From Candidatus Zixiibacteriota bacterium (GTDB lineage Bacteria > Zixibacteria > MSB-5A5 > WJJR01): a stretch of DNA of 64,000 nucleotides. How positions within the stretch are numbered: the stretch's first letter is position 1; the number at the start of each line of letters is the position of its first letter. Below are positions 5,029 to 56,403 of this stretch, in pieces. The position numbers and the translations under genes are program-made. The notes under the pieces were generated by a model, which was not told the origin of the DNA, did no database searches, and was given only the letters and a program-made list of their open reading frames with translations. The DNA lies in NCBI GenBank assembly GCA_040752595.1, contig JBFMGX010000004.1, forward strand, positions 365,346 to 429,345, given 5' to 3'.

Positions 5029-6312
5029 TTAGGGGGCGGATGATCCTCGAATGTCGAGGATATGGACTGCCATCAACACGCCGGGAGGAGTAGACGCCTG
5101 CGCCTTGGTAATCCGCATGGGTGACGACCCTTGGCGAAGGAGAATGCACTCATCACGCGGATCTCGGAACACAGTACCAATCAGTGTGACACGGGACACG
5201 TGGTCGTACGTGAACACTTCGACTCTTGTGCTGTCGAGTCCGACCTTCGAAACGTGAAGTGTGTCTTGTGTGTCGTGCGCTACCCAGATTGACACGCTCG
5301 AGACGCTGGCATTTGCGTTCCCACGGATTGTGACCCGCTCAACCTGGTCCCAAACGGAGAGGACCAGTGTGTCGCTGTACGGTGGAGGGAAGGCTTCTCC
5401 TGGATCGTGGTTACCCGTGATGATGCTGACCATCGCTTCAAGGTCTGCCCGCGTCAGCAGCTCGCCATCGCCGTTGATGTCACTTGCGGCAATCTGGCGC
5501 CCACGGCGCGCGGGATCCGCATCCCAGACGCGATCTCCGTAGATGAAGTAATTCGTGAGGAGTATAGCATCTCCTATCTCTTGTGCAACACCATTGAGGT
5601 TGATGTCACCGACAAGGGTCGCCGGCGGTTGTTCAAAATGTACTGCGCCGGAAACAAACCGGAGGAGTGGTCTCAGAGTGTACCTCCGCGGACAATTCCC
5701 CGTGTCATAGGGTGCCCACAGGCCGTCGTGGCGCTCGAGTGTATCTGCCATGTAGATGATGTTGTCATCTTTGGCGTCCATGAACGTGTTGTCCAGACAA
5801 TCGCCGATCCAGAACCCGACCTCAGTCGTAGTCCCGAATCTTCCGCGATGAGCGGTGGCCACGAAGTTCAGCGTGCAAAGGGCACCGTCTGGCAGGAGTT
5901 GTGGCGGTCGTGGTGACTGTGCATTGCCCCGATCACGGAACGCCTGAATCTCAATGCAGGAGAGCGGCCGAGCGGTGCCGTTACGGATGAGGGACTTGCG
6001 GGTACGCCACGTGAAGTACTCCCATTCCGAGATTGCGGGTCCTTGGTCGGTGCCGACAAAGGACAACGCGCTGTCGTCATACGAGACGACGAAGTTGATG
6101 CTCGCGAGCGAGTCGATTCTGTCGGGAAGTGACTCGTCCCACGCTACGCGTACAGGCAGATGCACATTCATTCCCGGGAGAGTTGTGTCCGAGTCGATTG
6201 AGATGACCGCGGCATAGGGGCGTTCTTGCTCCCCCGGTCCCGTCGTACCGCTGCAACCGGCGAGCACGACGGCGACGCCCAGCAGCGCGAATCCAAAGAA
6301 GCGACCGGCCAT
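5029..6312 (-). CDS. Lipoprotein with internal dockerin-type Ca-binding repeats
   Basis: Lipobox LAGC|SG after the signal peptide. Two dockerin repeats: GDINLNGVAQEIGDAILLTNYFIY and AASDINGDGELLTRADLEAMVSII. Confidence 0.6.
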   Translation of the reverse strand: MAGRFFGFALLGVAVVLAGCSGTTGPGEQERPYAAVISIDSDTTLPGMNVHLPVRVAWDESLPDRIDSLASINFVVSYDDSALSFVGTDQGPAISEWEYFTWRTRKSLIRNGTARPLSCIEIQAFRDRGNAQSPRPPQLLPDGALCTLNFVATAHRGRFGTTTEVGFWIGDCLDNTFMDAKDDNIIYMADTLERHDGLWAPYDTGNCPRRYTLRPLLRFVSGAVHFEQPPATLVGDINLNGVAQEIGDAILLTNYFIYGDRVWDADPARRGRQIAASDINGDGELLTRADLEAMVSIITGNHDPGEAFPPPYSDTLVLSVWDQVERVTIRGNANASVSSVSIWVAHDTQDTLHVSKVGLDSTRVEVFTYDHVSRVTLIGTVFRDPRDECILLRQGSSPMRITKAQASTPPGVLMAVHILDIRGSSAP

Positions 6313-6522: not shown

Positions 6523-7506
6523 CTACGATTGTTGCAGCAGATCCGCCCCGACAAGCAACGCCGCCGTCAGCACGATCGGCGTCAATTCGCCATAGACGCG
6601 CATCTCGTTGAGATTGCCGATCAGGAGGATCATCAAGACGAACGGGGGGATCGCCCACAGCGATTGCCGCGTGAACGGATCGTGCAGTCGTTTCCAGCCG
6701 GCGAGGATGAGAATCCAGACAAACCCGAAGCTGCTCAGAAACAAGATCAGTCGTTGCGGTGTGGCGAGCATCTCGAGATTCGTGCGCCAGTGCGCGATGT
6801 CGGTGCCGACATGGGTGAACTCGAACGATGTGCCGGGATTGCCGGCGTAGATCGAGCCCATCACGAACTTGATCGCCAGCCAGATCGCAACCTGCGCGGC
6901 CAGATGAATGGCATACGACGCCCTGGACAGGCGGCGATGCTCCACGACCGCGAAGACGATAGCGAGGAACAACATCGTCTCCCGGTTGAAGGTCGCCAAT
7001 GCGAACACCGGGTAGTACCAGATCCACTTGCGTCGGTGCAAGAGCGCCAGACCGAGGGCGAAGAAGGCCACGGCTGCCAGGTCATAGGGGAGATAGACCG
7101 GCAGATCGCGGGCCAAGAGGTAGTTCCACGGTAGGACATAGAACAACGCGAAGGGGAAAAGCTCGACCGCGATGCCCTCAAAGTATGATTTCAGGTGTAG
7201 ACGAAAGGCATAGAACAACCCCATGAGCGCGGCAACGTCAACCACCTTGTACAGAGTTTTGATCTCGACAGGAAAGACACCGGACAGCGCGCCCACAATC
7301 CATGGGACCAGCATGCGAAACTGGAACGGCTTGTGCGCGGTCCCATCGATGAGCGCCTGCAGCGTCGCCAGCGGAAATTCCTGATTGAGCCGGTAGCGCA
7401 GGTGGACGAAGTACCAGGAGAACACCAGGGCGACAAGGAAGACCCCGACGCCGGTCCGCCAAGGCGTGGTTTGCGCTGGCGATGATCCACGTGCCACCTT
7501 GGTCAT
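6523..7506 (-). CDS. Polytopic inner-membrane protein of unknown function (about 8 predicted TM helices)
   Basis: Hydrophobic helices throughout. No family recognised. Confidence 0.5.
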   Translation of the reverse strand: MTKVARGSSPAQTTPWRTGVGVFLVALVFSWYFVHLRYRLNQEFPLATLQALIDGTAHKPFQFRMLVPWIVGALSGVFPVEIKTLYKVVDVAALMGLFYAFRLHLKSYFEGIAVELFPFALFYVLPWNYLLARDLPVYLPYDLAAVAFFALGLALLHRRKWIWYYPVFALATFNRETMLFLAIVFAVVEHRRLSRASYAIHLAAQVAIWLAIKFVMGSIYAGNPGTSFEFTHVGTDIAHWRTNLEMLATPQRLILFLSSFGFVWILILAGWKRLHDPFTRQSLWAIPPFVLMILLIGNLNEMRVYGELTPIVLTAALLVGADLLQQS

Positions 7507-7589
7507 GTATCAACGTAAGGGAATCCCAGAGCGGTTTTCAATCGACATATTGGCGGACGGAGTCATGGCTGCAATCAGGCATTATTCCC

Positions 7590-7690
7590 TCGCCCGCTCC
7601 CGCCTTTGGCGGGAGCGACCTCCCCCGGAGGGAGAGGTTATCATTCCCCCTCACCCTTCCAGGGAGAGGGTTGGGGTGAGGGTCATCTCG
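7590..7690. repeat. MITE-like element of the 'CCTCTCCCTCCGG' family
   Basis: Shares the core CCGGAGGGAGAGG and flanking GGGTGAGGG with copies at 12395-12470, 47105-47200 and 56303-56403. Confidence 0.5.
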
Positions 7691-7780
7691 CAGCCTACCC
7701 GTTGAGAATCACGAACAGACAGCGGGCGGTGCACTCGCACCGCCCGCCCCTTGACAGACCAACCTCAAGCTGCGCGGACT

Positions 7781-7876
7781 CTACCGCAGTTTCTTTTTGT
7801 GACGGTCCTTGCGCAGGCGTTTCTTCCTCTTGTGGGTTTTGATCTTCTGGCGTTTCCGTTTCTTCCCGGATGGCAT
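7781..7876 (-). CDS. 31-aa hyper-basic small protein MPSGKKRKRQKIKTHKRKKRLRKDRHKKKLR, resembling ribosomal protein bS22
   Basis: ATG sits 44 nt downstream of the HU stop, preceded by GGGAGCG. Composition and spacing resemble mycobacterial and Bacteroidetes bS22 (..KKRRKRM.KKKHRKLLRRTR..). It is far below ORF-caller length cut-offs. Confidence 0.4.
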   Translation of the reverse strand: MPSGKKRKRQKIKTHKRKKRLRKDRHKKKLR

Positions 7877-7920
7877 CGAGCGCTCCCGTGGATGGGCGCC
7901 GCAGGGGCGCCATCATCCCC

Positions 7921-8205
7921 CTATAAAGGTTGCTTCACAATCAAATTCTTGAATTCATTCGACGGCTTGAAGACCGGCACCTTGCGGTCCGGGACCGGAA
8001 CCTCGTCGCCGGTGCGCGGATTGCGCGCCTTGCGGGCCTTGCGCATCTTCACCTTGAAGGTCCCAAACCCGCGGATCTCAATGTTCTTCCCGGTCTCCAA
8101 ACTGGCCTTCACCGCGTCGAGAAAAGCGTCCACCGTCACGGCCACGTCGGTGCGCGTCAGGCCGGTCTTCTCGGCGCAGATCTCCACCAAATCGGCCTTG
8201 GTCAT
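7921..8205 (-). CDS. hup: HU/IHF-family nucleoid DNA-binding protein
   Basis: IEIRGFGTFKV arm, RNPRTGDEV, KPS.EFK over 94 aa. Confidence 0.9.
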   Translation of the reverse strand: MTKADLVEICAEKTGLTRTDVAVTVDAFLDAVKASLETGKNIEIRGFGTFKVKMRKARKARNPRTGDEVPVPDRKVPVFKPSNEFKNLIVKQPL

Positions 8206-8263
8206 CCTGACCTCCTCATTGCATCGTCTATTTGTCTATATCTCAATCCCACACATTCCGGAC

Positions 8264-9166
8264 TCAATTGTAGCGATACTGCAGATTCGGCTCCGTGTCG
8301 ATCTCATCGGTACTCCTGCCGAGAAGCTGCTGTATGGCGGCACTGCCCAAAAGATCCCAGATCGACCGCCGCCGCGTGATGGTCTCCCGCACCGTCTTGG
8401 GCGGCTTGCTCATGTGCGCCATGTCGGCGGCGACATCAAGCGCGTCCTCGTAGTCGCCGAGCACGTCGACCAGTTGAAGATCCTTGGCCTGTCGGCCGGT
8501 GAAGATCCGGCCATCGGCAAAGAGCCGGACGGAGTCCGGCGACAGGCGCCGTCCCTTCGCAACCACCTCGACGAACTGATCGTAGCTGTCGTCGATGACC
8601 GACTGCAGGTGGGCGCTGTCGGCCGGCGTCATGGTGCGCGCCAGATTGCCGATGTCCTTGTACGGTCCGCTCTTCACCGTTTCGTAGCGCACGCCGATCT
8701 TGTCGAGGAGTCTCTCCAGCGTTGGGAACTGGAAGATGACGCCGATCGACCCGGTCAGTGTTCCGGGATTGGCGACAATCGTGTCGGCGGCCATCGACAC
8801 ATACAGCCCGCCGGAGGCGGCGATCGACCCCATGGACACGACGATTCTCTTTCCCTTGTCGCGGGCGCGGAGCAACTCCGCGTAGATTTCCTGGCTGGCG
8901 GCCACACCGCCCCCCGGGGAATCGACCCGCAGGAGTATCACCGGCACGGAATGGTCCTCCGACCAACGGCGCACTTGACGCACGATCGACCGGGAGGATT
9001 GGATCTCGCCGATCAACTCGACGACCGCCACCCGCTTGCCGAAGCCGCCGAAACTGGTCGATTCGCTGTCGGACATCCCCCACATGGCGACGAACATCAC
9101 CAGCGCGAACACCAGAAACGTGCCGCCGATGATGATCCCTACCAGCCAATCCCGACGCGCGGCCAT
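8264..9166 (-). CDS. sppA: Signal peptide peptidase SppA (36K type, S49 family)
   Basis: N-terminal TM helix. S49 fold with DSPGGGV and catalytic GSIAASGGLY, then K-containing region. Confidence 0.85.
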   Translation of the reverse strand: MAARRDWLVGIIIGGTFLVFALVMFVAMWGMSDSESTSFGGFGKRVAVVELIGEIQSSRSIVRQVRRWSEDHSVPVILLRVDSPGGGVAASQEIYAELLRARDKGKRIVVSMGSIAASGGLYVSMAADTIVANPGTLTGSIGVIFQFPTLERLLDKIGVRYETVKSGPYKDIGNLARTMTPADSAHLQSVIDDSYDQFVEVVAKGRRLSPDSVRLFADGRIFTGRQAKDLQLVDVLGDYEDALDVAADMAHMSKPPKTVRETITRRRSIWDLLGSAAIQQLLGRSTDEIDTEPNLQYRYN

Positions 9167-9193
9167 ATCAGTGTGCCCCCGACGCCCCCATGC

Positions 9194-11116
9194 TTACAAG
9201 TCGGCGGGAATGTGGAGCTTCTGGCCCACGCTGATCTGATCCGGATCGCGGAGGGAATTGTGGGCCAGAAGTTGGGCGATTGTCACACCGAACCGCGTGG
9301 CTATGCGCAGAATCGTGTCGCCCCGCTTCACGGTGTACCAGAAGCCGCTGCCGCTGCTGCCGCTACCCCGTGTTCCATCGGGAAGCACCAGTTTCTGCCC
9401 GACCATCAGACGGTCGTGCGCTCCCATGCGGTTGGCGGCACGGATGGCGGACGTCGTCGTGCCGAACTTGCGCGCCAGATCCCAGAGCGTGTCCCCATGG
9501 CGCACGACATACGTGCTTCCGCTCTTGGCGGAGCGCGACTTCGGCGCGGGCGTCGGGTCCGGCGCGCGTTGACGCACTTCTCTCTGCGCCAGTCGCTCGG
9601 AGGTCGGGATCGTGAGGACCTGACCGACCTTGAGCCGCTTTTTGACGGACAACTTGTTCACCGCGAGAAGTTCGGACAGACTGACTCCATAGCGCCGGGC
9701 GATCTTCCCCAACGTCTCCCCGCGACGCACGGTGTGTTCGACCAATTGGGTCCGGGTCGATGCCGGCAGATCCCGATAGGCCGCGGCGAATTGCAGTGAC
9801 GTTCCCTTGGGCACTCGTACGCGGTACGGCACGACATCGGGTGGTGTAACGCCTCGCCGCAACTCCGGGTTCAGATCGACCAGCACCGCCTCCGATGCGC
9901 CCACGGCACCGGCGACGTCTCTCAATTCCAGCGTCTTGTTGGTGGCGACCCAATCGAACTCCAGGGGCGGATCAGGCTCGACGTAGAACCCGTAGCTCTC
10001 CGGATCCTTGGCGATCATCAGCGCCGCGATGAAGAGCGGCACATAGTTGCGGGTCTGGTCGCGCAGTTTCAGTTTCCAAAAGTCTTTGGTTTTCTGACGC
10101 TTGATTTGACGCGCCACGCGTCCCTCGCCGCCATTGTAGGCGGCCAGAGCCAGAGTCCAAGAGTTGAACATCCCGTACAGATCGGACAGATAACGGCAGG
10201 CGGCGTGCGTCGACTTTTCGAAGTCGCGCCGTTCGTCATACCAGACGTTACGCTCCAATCCGTAGCGGCGCCCTGTCGAGGCGATGAACTGCCACGGGCC
10301 CGCAGCGTGGGCATAGGAATAGGCATTGTTGTTGAAGCCCGATTCGATAAAAGGCAAATAGGCCAGATCGGTGGGGAGGCCATACGAAGCGAAGACATCC
10401 TTCATCATTGGCAGGTATCGACCCGCCCGCCCCAAGAACAGCTCGAACGGCTCACGCGCCACCGTCTGGTAGAACAGAATGCAGTTGCGGACCTTGTCGT
10501 TGAGTTCGACCGGGAAGTCGTACTCTACCTGTTGCTTCTCGGCTTCGCGGGTCACGAGTTCCGTACCGGCCAAGCTGGAGTCGACACTCTCGTAGCGGAG
10601 CATAACCGTCGAACTCGAAGCATCCTCGCCAAGGCTCCCGAGCGCTTCCAGCGTCTTCTCGTAGTCGGTGTTGATTTCTTCGAGGAGACGATCGATTCTC
10701 GCGGCGATTTCGGGGTCCTCAACCGCAGCCAAGTCGATTTCACCCAGAGCCTTGATGGCTCGCTCGAAGGCGACCTGAGCATCCTGCCACCGGGTGTCCT
10801 GGTTGGCGGCCACGCCGGACGCATAGAGCGCCTCGGCTTCTGCGAAGAGATGTGCGGGATCAACCGCTGCCTGCTCTTCGGACTCGGTGACAGGAGCAGC
10901 ACTATCTGTCGCAGTCTCAGGCGATTCCGAGTAATTGCCGGAGTCGAAATCGGCGGCACTCGGCGATGGTTCGCTGGGAACACCACGCCCAGTACGCCTC
11001 GATGTTGTCGCGCATCCTGCCAACGCCAAGGCAAGCAACGCGATCAAGATCGCATGTGGATTCAGTCGACTCGTCACAACCCCCCTTACAGATACCGCAA
11101 TCGTCTTCTGCCCCAC
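9194..11116 (-). CDS. mltD: Membrane-bound lytic murein transglycosylase D-like: SLT domain plus 3 LysM repeats, lipoprotein
   Basis: GTG start. Lipobox LALAGC. SLT motif ESGFNNNAYSYAHAAGPWQF. C-terminal LysM repeats (RRGETLGKIARRYGVS, RHGDTLWDLARKFG, KRGDTILRIATRFGV). Confidence 0.85.
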   Translation of the reverse strand: MGQKTIAVSVRGVVTSRLNPHAILIALLALALAGCATTSRRTGRGVPSEPSPSAADFDSGNYSESPETATDSAAPVTESEEQAAVDPAHLFAEAEALYASGVAANQDTRWQDAQVAFERAIKALGEIDLAAVEDPEIAARIDRLLEEINTDYEKTLEALGSLGEDASSSTVMLRYESVDSSLAGTELVTREAEKQQVEYDFPVELNDKVRNCILFYQTVAREPFELFLGRAGRYLPMMKDVFASYGLPTDLAYLPFIESGFNNNAYSYAHAAGPWQFIASTGRRYGLERNVWYDERRDFEKSTHAACRYLSDLYGMFNSWTLALAAYNGGEGRVARQIKRQKTKDFWKLKLRDQTRNYVPLFIAALMIAKDPESYGFYVEPDPPLEFDWVATNKTLELRDVAGAVGASEAVLVDLNPELRRGVTPPDVVPYRVRVPKGTSLQFAAAYRDLPASTRTQLVEHTVRRGETLGKIARRYGVSLSELLAVNKLSVKKRLKVGQVLTIPTSERLAQREVRQRAPDPTPAPKSRSAKSGSTYVVRHGDTLWDLARKFGTTTSAIRAANRMGAHDRLMVGQKLVLPDGTRGSGSSGSGFWYTVKRGDTILRIATRFGVTIAQLLAHNSLRDPDQISVGQKLHIPADL

Positions 11117-12394: not shown

Positions 12395-12518
12395 CTAACC
12401 TCTCCCTCCGGCAGTGTCCCGAACGGAGTGAGGGAGAGAGGTCGATCCGCCGCAGGCGGATCGGGTGAGGGACAAGGCATCGTGTGCATCATTTGATCAC
12501 ACGGGTCTGAAGACCCGT
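12395..12518. repeat. MITE-like 'CCTCTCCCTCCGG' copy (inverted relative to the 56303 copy) plus the CACGGGTCTGAAGACCCGTG hairpin
   Basis: Direct sequence comparison with 56303-56403 and 4964-4983. Confidence 0.5.
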
Positions 12519-19732: not shown

Positions 19733-19807
19733 GCCCCCGTGGTGTAAAGGATAACGCACCGGCCTCCGGAGCCGGTAATACAGGTTCGATTCCTGTCGGG
19801 GGTACCA
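19733..19807 (+). tRNA. tRNA-Arg (anticodon CCG), CCA encoded
   Basis: Hand-folded cloverleaf. 7-bp acceptor stem (G1-U72 wobble). D-stem GUGU/ACGC with GG in loop. Anticodon stem CCGGC/GCCGG with loop CUCCGGA. T-arm ACAGG-UUCGAUU-CCUGU. Discriminator A plus CCA. Confidence 0.85.
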
Positions 19808-32346: not shown

Positions 32347-32529
32347 GGAATAGGGCTTTGACGTTTCTCCGCCAGAGTTCGAAACATGCAAAATACCGTC
32401 CGCCTCGGCATCCGGCAACGGAAAAACGTTCCTGGCGCGGCACCTTTGGCGCCCGGAGCGATACGGTCGTATGCAATCGGACTTGACAGATCAAGGCGGC
32501 ATCCCTATATGTGATTCGGCGTCCGGTGA

Positions 32530-32700
32530 TCTGCGGATCGACCGGGAAGGCGGTGAGAATCCGCCACAGCCCCGCTGCTGTAAGCGGCTACGACGGTGAC
32601 GCCGCGTGCGAAAGTCGCGGCTAACCACTGGGACGGTAGTCCCGGGAAGGTGTCACCCGAGGCCCGAAGCCGCAAAGTCAGAAGACCGGCACGGACGTCT
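32530..32700 (+). promoter_or_regulatory. Cobalamin (AdoCbl) riboswitch
   Basis: GGGAAGGCGGTGAGAATCCGCC...CCCGCTGCTGTAAGCGG ... CCACTGGGACGG...CCCGGGAAGGTG ... B12-box AAGTCAGAAGACCGGCA. These match the Rfam RF00174 core elements GGUG.GAAUCC / CCACUG / GGGAAGG / AGUCAGGAGACCUGCC. Confidence 0.7.
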
Positions 32701-32905
32701 GCCACAGATCTCGATTCGGCTGAAGCCGAATGAGTCCGTGGCCAGAGTTTCGATGCCTTCGCGGGAAGGATCGGGGCGGGACGTCGCATCGCGGCTGAGT
32801 CCCTGACTGTCGCCCGACCACCGCGTGGCCGGGCGATCTGCTTTGTCCGGTCCCGTTCCTTCCCCGCAGACATCGGTTCAGCACCGCTCCGAGGGAGAGC
32901 CGGCC

Positions 32906-47094: not shown

Positions 47095-47454
47095 ACTCTT
47101 CCTGAAAGGGAGCGGGGGATGATAACCTCTCCCTCCGGCTTGCCCTGAGCGAAGTCGAAGGGGAGAGATCGCTTGGACCGGAGGTCCCAGCGGGTGAGGG
47201 ACTTTTCCGTCGGTTCATACGGCGAGAAGTCCTCGGACCTTCCCAGAAGTTGAGGGTTTGCCGGAAAAAAGCAGACCCCTCGCTCCGCTCGGGGTGACAG
47301 GGTGTGTGGGATTTCTGAAGGGAGACTGTCGTTCCGAGCGAAGCGAGGAACCTGCTGTTTCATGTATAATGACCTTCCGTTTCACTCTGTTAGCTGGTCA
47401 TTGGCATGACCTGGCCATGCCGGGCCGTCACCCCCCCGGCCAATAGTACGCAAA

Positions 47455-56302: not shown

Positions 56303-56403
56303 CCCCTCACCCGATCCGCCTGCGGCGGATCGACCTCTCCCGGAGGGAGAGGTTGCTTTCTCCCCTCTCCCCGGTGGGGAGAGGGTAGGGTGAGGGGTTT
56401 TTG
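56303..56403. repeat. MITE-like element with 16-bp terminal inverted repeats (AAAAACCCCCTCACCC...GGGTGAGGGGTTTTTG), 'CCTCTCCCTCCGG' family
   Basis: TIRs seen directly. Internal palindromes CCGCCTGCGGCGG and CTCTCCCGGAGGGAGAG. Related copies at 7590, 12395 and 47105. Confidence 0.5.

Follow-up and report, generated by a model that had tools for sequence, protein, structure and literature searches.

A 31-codon gene following HU in a Zixibacteria-like genome very probably encodes ribosomal protein bS22

Introduction

Is a 31-codon, extremely basic open reading frame (ORF) lying directly after an HU-family gene in a Zixibacteria-like bacterium a real gene, and if so, does it encode ribosomal protein bS22? 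This protein is described in the literature from Mycobacteria/Actinobacteria, Bacteroidia and Borrelia. In the ribosomes of F. johnsoniae, P. gingivalis, Borrelia and mycobacteria, bS22 lies between helices h44 and h45 of 16S rRNA, near h2 and h27, and touches H68/H70 of 23S rRNA, which makes an additional intersubunit contact near the decoding centre. Deletion of bS22 is tolerated in M. smegmatis and increases sensitivity to kanamycin; no transposon insertions are found in the Borrelia gene; and the F. johnsoniae protein is seen in 70S complexes and is absent from isolated 30S subunits. The ORF was studied within a 64-kb stretch of DNA (hereafter the window, meaning that stretch at its full length), for which an initial annotation had pointed out its resemblance to bS22.

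Methods

The 31-aa peptide was used as a single phmmer query against all PDB chains, matches being reported at E ≤ 10. The same chains were searched with a profile, A1, built from an alignment of 12 orthologues recovered in this analysis. Related loci L001 to L008 were selected by an identical protein. Independent loci were collected using SppA alone as the anchor, with one genome per GTDB species; L018, L023 and L075, whose sequences end too early, were left out of the count. Curated families were searched in Pfam, NCBIfam and Rfam, and the peptide was modelled with AF2 from its single sequence.

Position and composition of the ORF

The features of the locus are listed in Table 1. Translation of the ORF gives MPSGKKRKRQKIKTHKRKKRLRKDRHKKKLR, a peptide of 31 aa (about 4 kDa, with a computed pI of about 12) containing 12 Lys, 7 Arg and 2 His. 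Lys and Arg account for 61% of its residues and, together with His, for 21 of the 31, i.e. 68%, a count that corrects the 71% of the initial annotation. The rest of that description was borne out: a hyper-basic ORF of 31 codons after HU, an ATG on the same strand exactly 44 nt past the HU stop, GGGAG just ahead of the ATG, and an overlapping, out-of-frame ORF of 73 aa.

The window contains 826 ORFs of 25 aa or longer, and the ORF tops them all in basic content, with basic residues at 68% and Lys at 39%. The runner-up has 48% basic residues and 3% Lys, and the other top-ranked ORFs are rich in Arg, Lys never exceeding 4%. In a window of 62.7% G+C, the ORF is far above chance expectation.

Table 1. 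Features of the putative bS22 locus and other elements mentioned in the text (window coordinates)
Feature	Coordinates	Strand	Remarks
Putative bS22 coding sequence	7781..7876	minus	31 codons + stop; ATG start, TAG stop
Shine-Dalgarno-like GGGAG	7883..7887	minus	6 nt upstream of the ATG; putative ribosome-binding site
HU-bS22 spacer	7877..7920	minus	44 nt; predicted G+C-rich hairpin without U tract at ~7885-7918, dG -21.5 kcal/mol (fold)
HU/IHF-family gene	7921..8205	minus	94 aa; Pfam Bac_DNA_binding, E = 3.9e-32; directly upstream of bS22
SppA-type signal peptide peptidase (S49) gene	8264..9166	minus	Pfam Peptidase_S49, E = 3.9e-52
SLT + LysM lytic transglycosylase gene	9194..11116	minus	Pfam SLT and LysM; 27-nt gap to sppA
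Terminator-like hairpin	7721..7748	minus	33 nt past the bS22 stop; fold, and inverted repeat 7722-7732 / 7737-7747
Overlapping out-of-frame ORF	7695..7916	minus	73 aa
Downstream gene	6523-7506	minus	327 aa
Downstream gene	5029-6312	minus	427 aa
Antisense open frame	7751-9799	plus	682 aa
Palindromic repeats	7585-7685		intergenic, just past the terminator-like hairpin
Related palindromic copies	12396-12411, 47114-47138, 56304-56396		
tRNA	19733-19804	plus	Rfam gathering-level match
Cobalamin riboswitch	32507-32709	plus	Rfam gathering-level match, 90.8 bits, E = 3.5e-21

Similarity to ribosome-bound bS22 proteins

Exactly three significant matches to the peptide were found among the PDB chains, and each of them is a bS22 modelled in a cryo-EM ribosome map: F. 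johnsoniae bS22 (7JIL chain 5, E = 1.4e-7, 23/29 identical residues), a P. gingivalis protein deposited as "AURKAIP1/COX24 domain-containing protein" (9I5V chain 10, E = 3.4e-7, 23/29) and Borrelia burgdorferi bS22 (8FMW chain V, E = 1.7e-5, 20/28). As the search output names no organism for it, 9I5V was assigned to P. gingivalis because its length of 30 aa and its description as a hypothetical protein agree with the published paper. All three alignments are ungapped and full-length and start at residue 1, and the sole further match to the single sequence at E ≤ 10 was a homeobox protein (E = 1.3). The A1 profile matched the same chains at 8.8e-14 (7JIL), 1.9e-12 (9I5V) and 2.1e-10 (8FMW), and nothing beyond these three at E ≤ 10.

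Composition alone fails to explain the match, since in 20,000 composition-preserving shuffles of the peptide the best ungapped identity per reference averaged 8.5-9.2 residues and reached a maximum of 15, against the 23/29, 23/29 and 20/28 observed. By these alignments, the ORF is the orthologue of the ribosomal bS22 of F. johnsoniae, P. gingivalis and Borrelia. The resemblance put forward by the initial annotation is supported for this type (1.4e-7 to 1.7e-5), of which the ORF carries every sequence-level mark, and not for the mycobacterial one: at E ≤ 10, neither the single sequence nor the A1 profile picked out a mycobacterial bS22 or an mS38 among the PDB chains. The mycobacterial gene, cited there as adjacent to Rv2056c, is given in the literature as MSMEG_0945 / Rv0550B.

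Compared with the Bacteroidota proteins (F. johnsoniae Fjoh_1533, 7JIL chain 5; P. gingivalis, 9I5V), the peptide has nearly the same length (31 vs 30 aa) and shares the MP(S/N)GKKRKR N-terminus, the THKRKKR core and the RHKKK tail, the 23/29 alignment being free of gaps. It differs by one extra C-terminal residue (…KKKLR), by its host, a Zixibacteria-like lineage and not a member of the Bacteroidota, and by the clear GGGAG ahead of its gene, whereas Bacteroidia are generally without Shine-Dalgarno sequences. The Bacteroidota protein is ribosome-bound; for that of the window, binding is predicted. The Borrelia burgdorferi protein (bb0822, 8FMW chain V) shares the MP.G…THKRKK…RHKK pattern over its 20/28 identity; unlike the window gene, which starts with ATG, it has a GUG start, and 28 of its residues are modelled. 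That gene was also unannotated originally and was found by translated search. Basicity is similar throughout, with a pI of about 12 and 61% K+R for the window peptide, a pI of 12.7 for F. johnsoniae bS22 and 61% K/R for Borrelia bS22.

Actinobacterial bS22 (MSMEG_0945 / Rv0550B), mS38 (AURKAIP1/Cox24, PF08213) and eL41 resemble the peptide in size and charge and, according to published superpositions, occupy the same h44/h45 rRNA pocket as the Bacteroidota protein. Actinobacterial bS22 and mS38 differ from it in having no significant sequence similarity to it (none at E ≤ 10, and a sub-threshold COX24_C match), and a link between the ORF and mycobacterial bS22 or mS38 would rest on these structural superpositions. 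Homology versus convergence among the bS22, mS38 and eL41 groups is debated, at least one paper considering convergence possible.

Outside the PDB, phmmer retrieved 88 matches at E ≤ 1e-3 from 1.84 billion representatives, all of them 34-145 aa long and 67-97% identical over the peptide; the longer ones may be gene calls over-extended at the N- or C-terminus. By exact look-up in the protein collection, three sequences of 30-31 aa, including F. johnsoniae bS22, were all missing.

Curated family models and the annotation gap

The Pfam family COX24_C (PF08213) aligned weakly with residues 3-29 of the ORF, at 10.5 bits (E = 0.61) for a gathering threshold of 23, and matched 5 of the 12 orthologues, all below threshold (best E = 0.031). 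No NCBIfam family was found for the ORF at E ≤ 10. The three structure-validated bS22 proteins were used as controls: F. johnsoniae and Borrelia bS22 were left unmatched by PF08213, the P. gingivalis protein scored 11.8 bits, and NCBIfam gave no family at E ≤ 10 for any of the three. Because proteins validated by cryo-EM fail the same Pfam and NCBIfam libraries, absence of an HMM match is no valid test of the ORF. The check for bS22 HMM similarity suggested by the initial annotation thus yields a sub-threshold score from the curated model (10.5 vs 23 bits), together with clear matches to the PDB chains. The PF08213 model is insensitive to the Bacteroidota/Borrelia bS22 subfamily, and the failure is that of the models, not of the ORF; on 10.5 bits against 23, the ORF would nevertheless not be filed under PF08213.

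The gap concerns annotation models as such, Pfam and NCBIfam missing the bS22 of 7jil_5, 9i5v_10 and 8fmw_V at threshold while A1 recovers them cleanly. The practical value of the finding lies in annotation, a real ribosomal protein gene being left unnamed by the current Pfam and NCBIfam models; the orthologues in several poorly studied phyla face the same problem, and in the window the spurious overlapping 73-aa ORF can mask bS22. Two observations bear on gene calling. In the Gemmatimonadota MAG CP070758.1 (L013:5530-5625), the bS22 orthologue starts with TTG after GGGAGG, non-ATG starts being a further reason for misses. The 682-aa open frame of the window is antisense to bS22, HU, SppA and part of the SLT/LysM gene; it looks like a high-G+C shadow ORF, by which gene callers might be led astray here.

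Conservation in related genomes

In public contigs, the identical 31-aa protein has been called as a gene in 51 index blocks; samples that hold it include JGI 3300043178 and 3300037878 and ENA ERZ27247687. It is already predicted by gene callers in public metagenomes, and the view that such genes are routinely missed by ORF callers is untrue of these contigs. The DNA of the identical-protein contigs differs from that of the window at 9-15 of 93 nt, and all differences are synonymous, a result that is partly conditioned for L001-L008 by their selection on an identical protein.

The loci anchored on SppA are free of this selection. The best match among them, L009, comes from a Ca. Zixiibacteriota MAG in which SppA is 68% and HU 93% identical; its bS22 peptide, at a locus found via SppA only, is identical to that of the window, with 10 nucleotide differences that are all synonymous. 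Where SppA identity was at least 42% and downstream sequence was sufficient, the ORF was found after an HU-family gene on the same strand in 16 of 16 SppA-anchored loci. These are labelled Zixibacteria, Ignavibacteria, Gemmatimonadota (with a TTG start) and Prosthecochloris, in which the ORF lies about 1 kb after HU. The bS22 peptides of the SppA-anchored loci are 77-84% identical to that of the window. No such ORF was found in loci of Elusimicrobia, Fibrobacteres and Melainabacteria within 4 kb of SppA, the stretch covered. The conserved reading frame and HU synteny, which the initial annotation had named as checks, were therefore both seen in relatives, including loci found independently of the ORF.

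In the orthologue protein alignment, 19 of the 31 columns are invariant (MP.G, K6, K8, R9, K11, T14-K19, L21 and R25-K29), and nearly all of these residues are common to the solved bS22 proteins. Over 18 sequences, variable columns number 15, 10 and 30 of 31 at codon positions 1, 2 and 3, respectively. The HU-bS22 spacers of the relatives, 21-106 nt long, cannot be aligned and are unconserved in sequence. With the peptide conserved and third positions and spacers variable, selection therefore acts on the peptide and not on the DNA or RNA. This pattern shows the ORF to be a real coding gene, held under strong purifying selection.

Gene neighbourhood

The ORF closes a same-strand cluster in the order SLT/LysM, SppA, HU, bS22. 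For the 94-aa HU/IHF-family protein, NCBIfam IHF and HU equivalog matches fall below their cut-offs. The order miaA (IPPT), SLT+LysM, S49 peptidase (SppA), HU, bS22 was found at 10 of the 10 identical-protein places listed (from 51 blocks), and the genes of the window are arranged likewise, mutS and mutL lying on the opposite strand. All related loci that carry the ORF have HU upstream of it, and the conserved SppA-HU-bS22 order can be used for finding bS22 elsewhere.

Synteny is lost directly past bS22, the downstream genes differing among the otherwise collinear relatives L001-L008. The two downstream genes of the window, of 327 and 427 aa, have no Pfam match. In L008, mutL and mutS are separated by a Y1 (IS200-type) transposase gene (L008:2154-2501) that is absent from the window.

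Expression signals and RNA elements

The bS22 ORF would be translated from its own GGGAG ribosome-binding site; most orthologous loci have GGAG or GGGAG about as far from the start, and one subgroup has GGTGGT. Transcription probably reads through from HU or from farther upstream, and the transcript would end at the G+C-rich hairpin past the bS22 stop. This hairpin has a perfect G+C stem of 11-12 bp, a 4-nt loop and a weak U-rich tail, and hairpins just as strong, with U runs behind them, stand in the same place in close relatives. The scan for consensus promoters and terminators called nothing at the bS22 locus, the hairpin going uncalled because its U tract is weak. Given the terminator-like hairpins here and in relatives, bS22 would therefore be the last gene of its transcription unit.

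Hairpins similar to that of the spacer occur in some close relatives (L002, L003 and L009) and are missing from more distant ones. A role of the spacer hairpin as a conserved attenuator was rejected, many relatives being without a stable fold in spacers whose length varies as given above. One may conjecture that it sets the HU:bS22 expression ratio or protects the transcript.

Over the whole window, Rfam gave no match at the bS22 locus and no rRNA; the only gathering-level matches are the riboswitch and the tRNA of Table 1. Short G+C-rich palindromic repeats are found just past the bS22 terminator, e.g. CGGAGGGAGAGGTTATCAT and CCCTCACCC…GGGTGAGGG, with related copies elsewhere in the window. 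They resemble a REP-like family of intergenic repeats, and no match to them was found among the related loci.

Alternative readings of the ORF

One could argue from its very short length and low complexity, and from the hairpins on both sides of it, that the ORF is non-coding: either the purine-rich 3' UTR of HU or some other RNA element in which one frame is open by accident. The 15/10/30 pattern of codon positions is that of a coding sequence and already refutes this reading, the peptide remains identical despite 10-16% DNA divergence next to flanking spacers that are unalignable and of variable length, Rfam is silent at the locus, and the ORF is the only Lys-rich one among 826; a non-coding origin is hardly credible. 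It is equally improbable, to the point of being negligible, that the overlapping 73-aa ORF is the real gene and the 31-codon frame incidental. The former is longer, has an ATG start and is the one listed in the ORF track behind the initial annotation, but of the 17 related loci, 15 have 1-4 stops in its frame within the bS22 sequence, and a conserved open frame of 73 aa was looked for in these 17 loci and not found. The substitutions sit at third positions of the bS22 frame, and the 73-aa frame crosses the terminator hairpin. The third reading frame over bS22 also has stops in more distant relatives.

More deserving of attention, although still very unlikely, is a real and conserved hyper-basic small protein that would be non-ribosomal in this organism, such as a nucleic-acid-binding partner co-expressed with HU in the nucleoid, or a protamine-like or antimicrobial peptide. 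The ORF does follow an HU-family gene directly, in a linkage kept across several phyla, and the absence of F. johnsoniae bS22 from isolated 30S subunits makes its binding conditional. Operon neighbours of ribosomal protein genes are, however, often functionally unrelated to them, and along its full length the peptide has about 79% identity to proteins observed in three ribosome structures, with which it shares the invariant MP.G, THKRKK and RHKKK. The ORF is thus very probably the ribosomal protein bS22 gene of a Zixibacteria-like bacterium (FCB group).

Predicted structure and role in the ribosome

The AF2 model of the peptide is a single helix spanning residues 4-29 (pLDDT 94.7), with KKK at 27-29, which agrees with how F. 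johnsoniae bS22 has been described in print, as one alpha helix followed by lysines. Foldseek returned no matches to this model in the PDB, which may be due to the query being one short helix.

The same binding mode as in the solved bS22 proteins is expected by analogy, because the invariant residues are nearly all common to them. As in these orthologues, the peptide would form a single alpha-helix and enter the pocket of 16S rRNA that is flanked by h44 and h45, close to h27 and the decoding centre. The Lys/Arg tail at its C-terminus would reach H68/H70 of 23S rRNA and add an intersubunit contact, and the peptide would thereby stabilise the base of h44 and shape the aminoglycoside-binding pocket.

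Range and significance of bS22

The bS22 family is already known, as are its structure and ribosomal location, and the window gene is an ordinary member of the family. A search of the available literature found no phylum-wide survey of bS22. The present results go slightly beyond that literature on two points, namely the presence of a bS22 gene in Zixibacteria-like, Ignavibacteria-labelled, Gemmatimonadota and Chlorobi genomes, and the conserved SppA-HU-bS22 string in which it is retained. They modestly widen the range documented for bS22 and leave what is known of its action unchanged.

A broader reading, which we hold tentatively and judge somewhat less probable than its contrary, is that bS22 is an ancestral component of the ribosome across the FCB group and Gemmatimonadota (Zixibacteria, Ignavibacteria, Chlorobi and Gemmatimonadota), kept in an old SppA-HU-bS22 string. 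If this were true, bS22 would be no peculiarity of Bacteroidia, Borrelia and Actinobacteria, and it would occur in lineages that use Shine-Dalgarno sites. It would also imply a long-standing co-expression of a nucleoid protein with a ribosomal peptide of the decoding centre, and possibly a functional coupling between the two.
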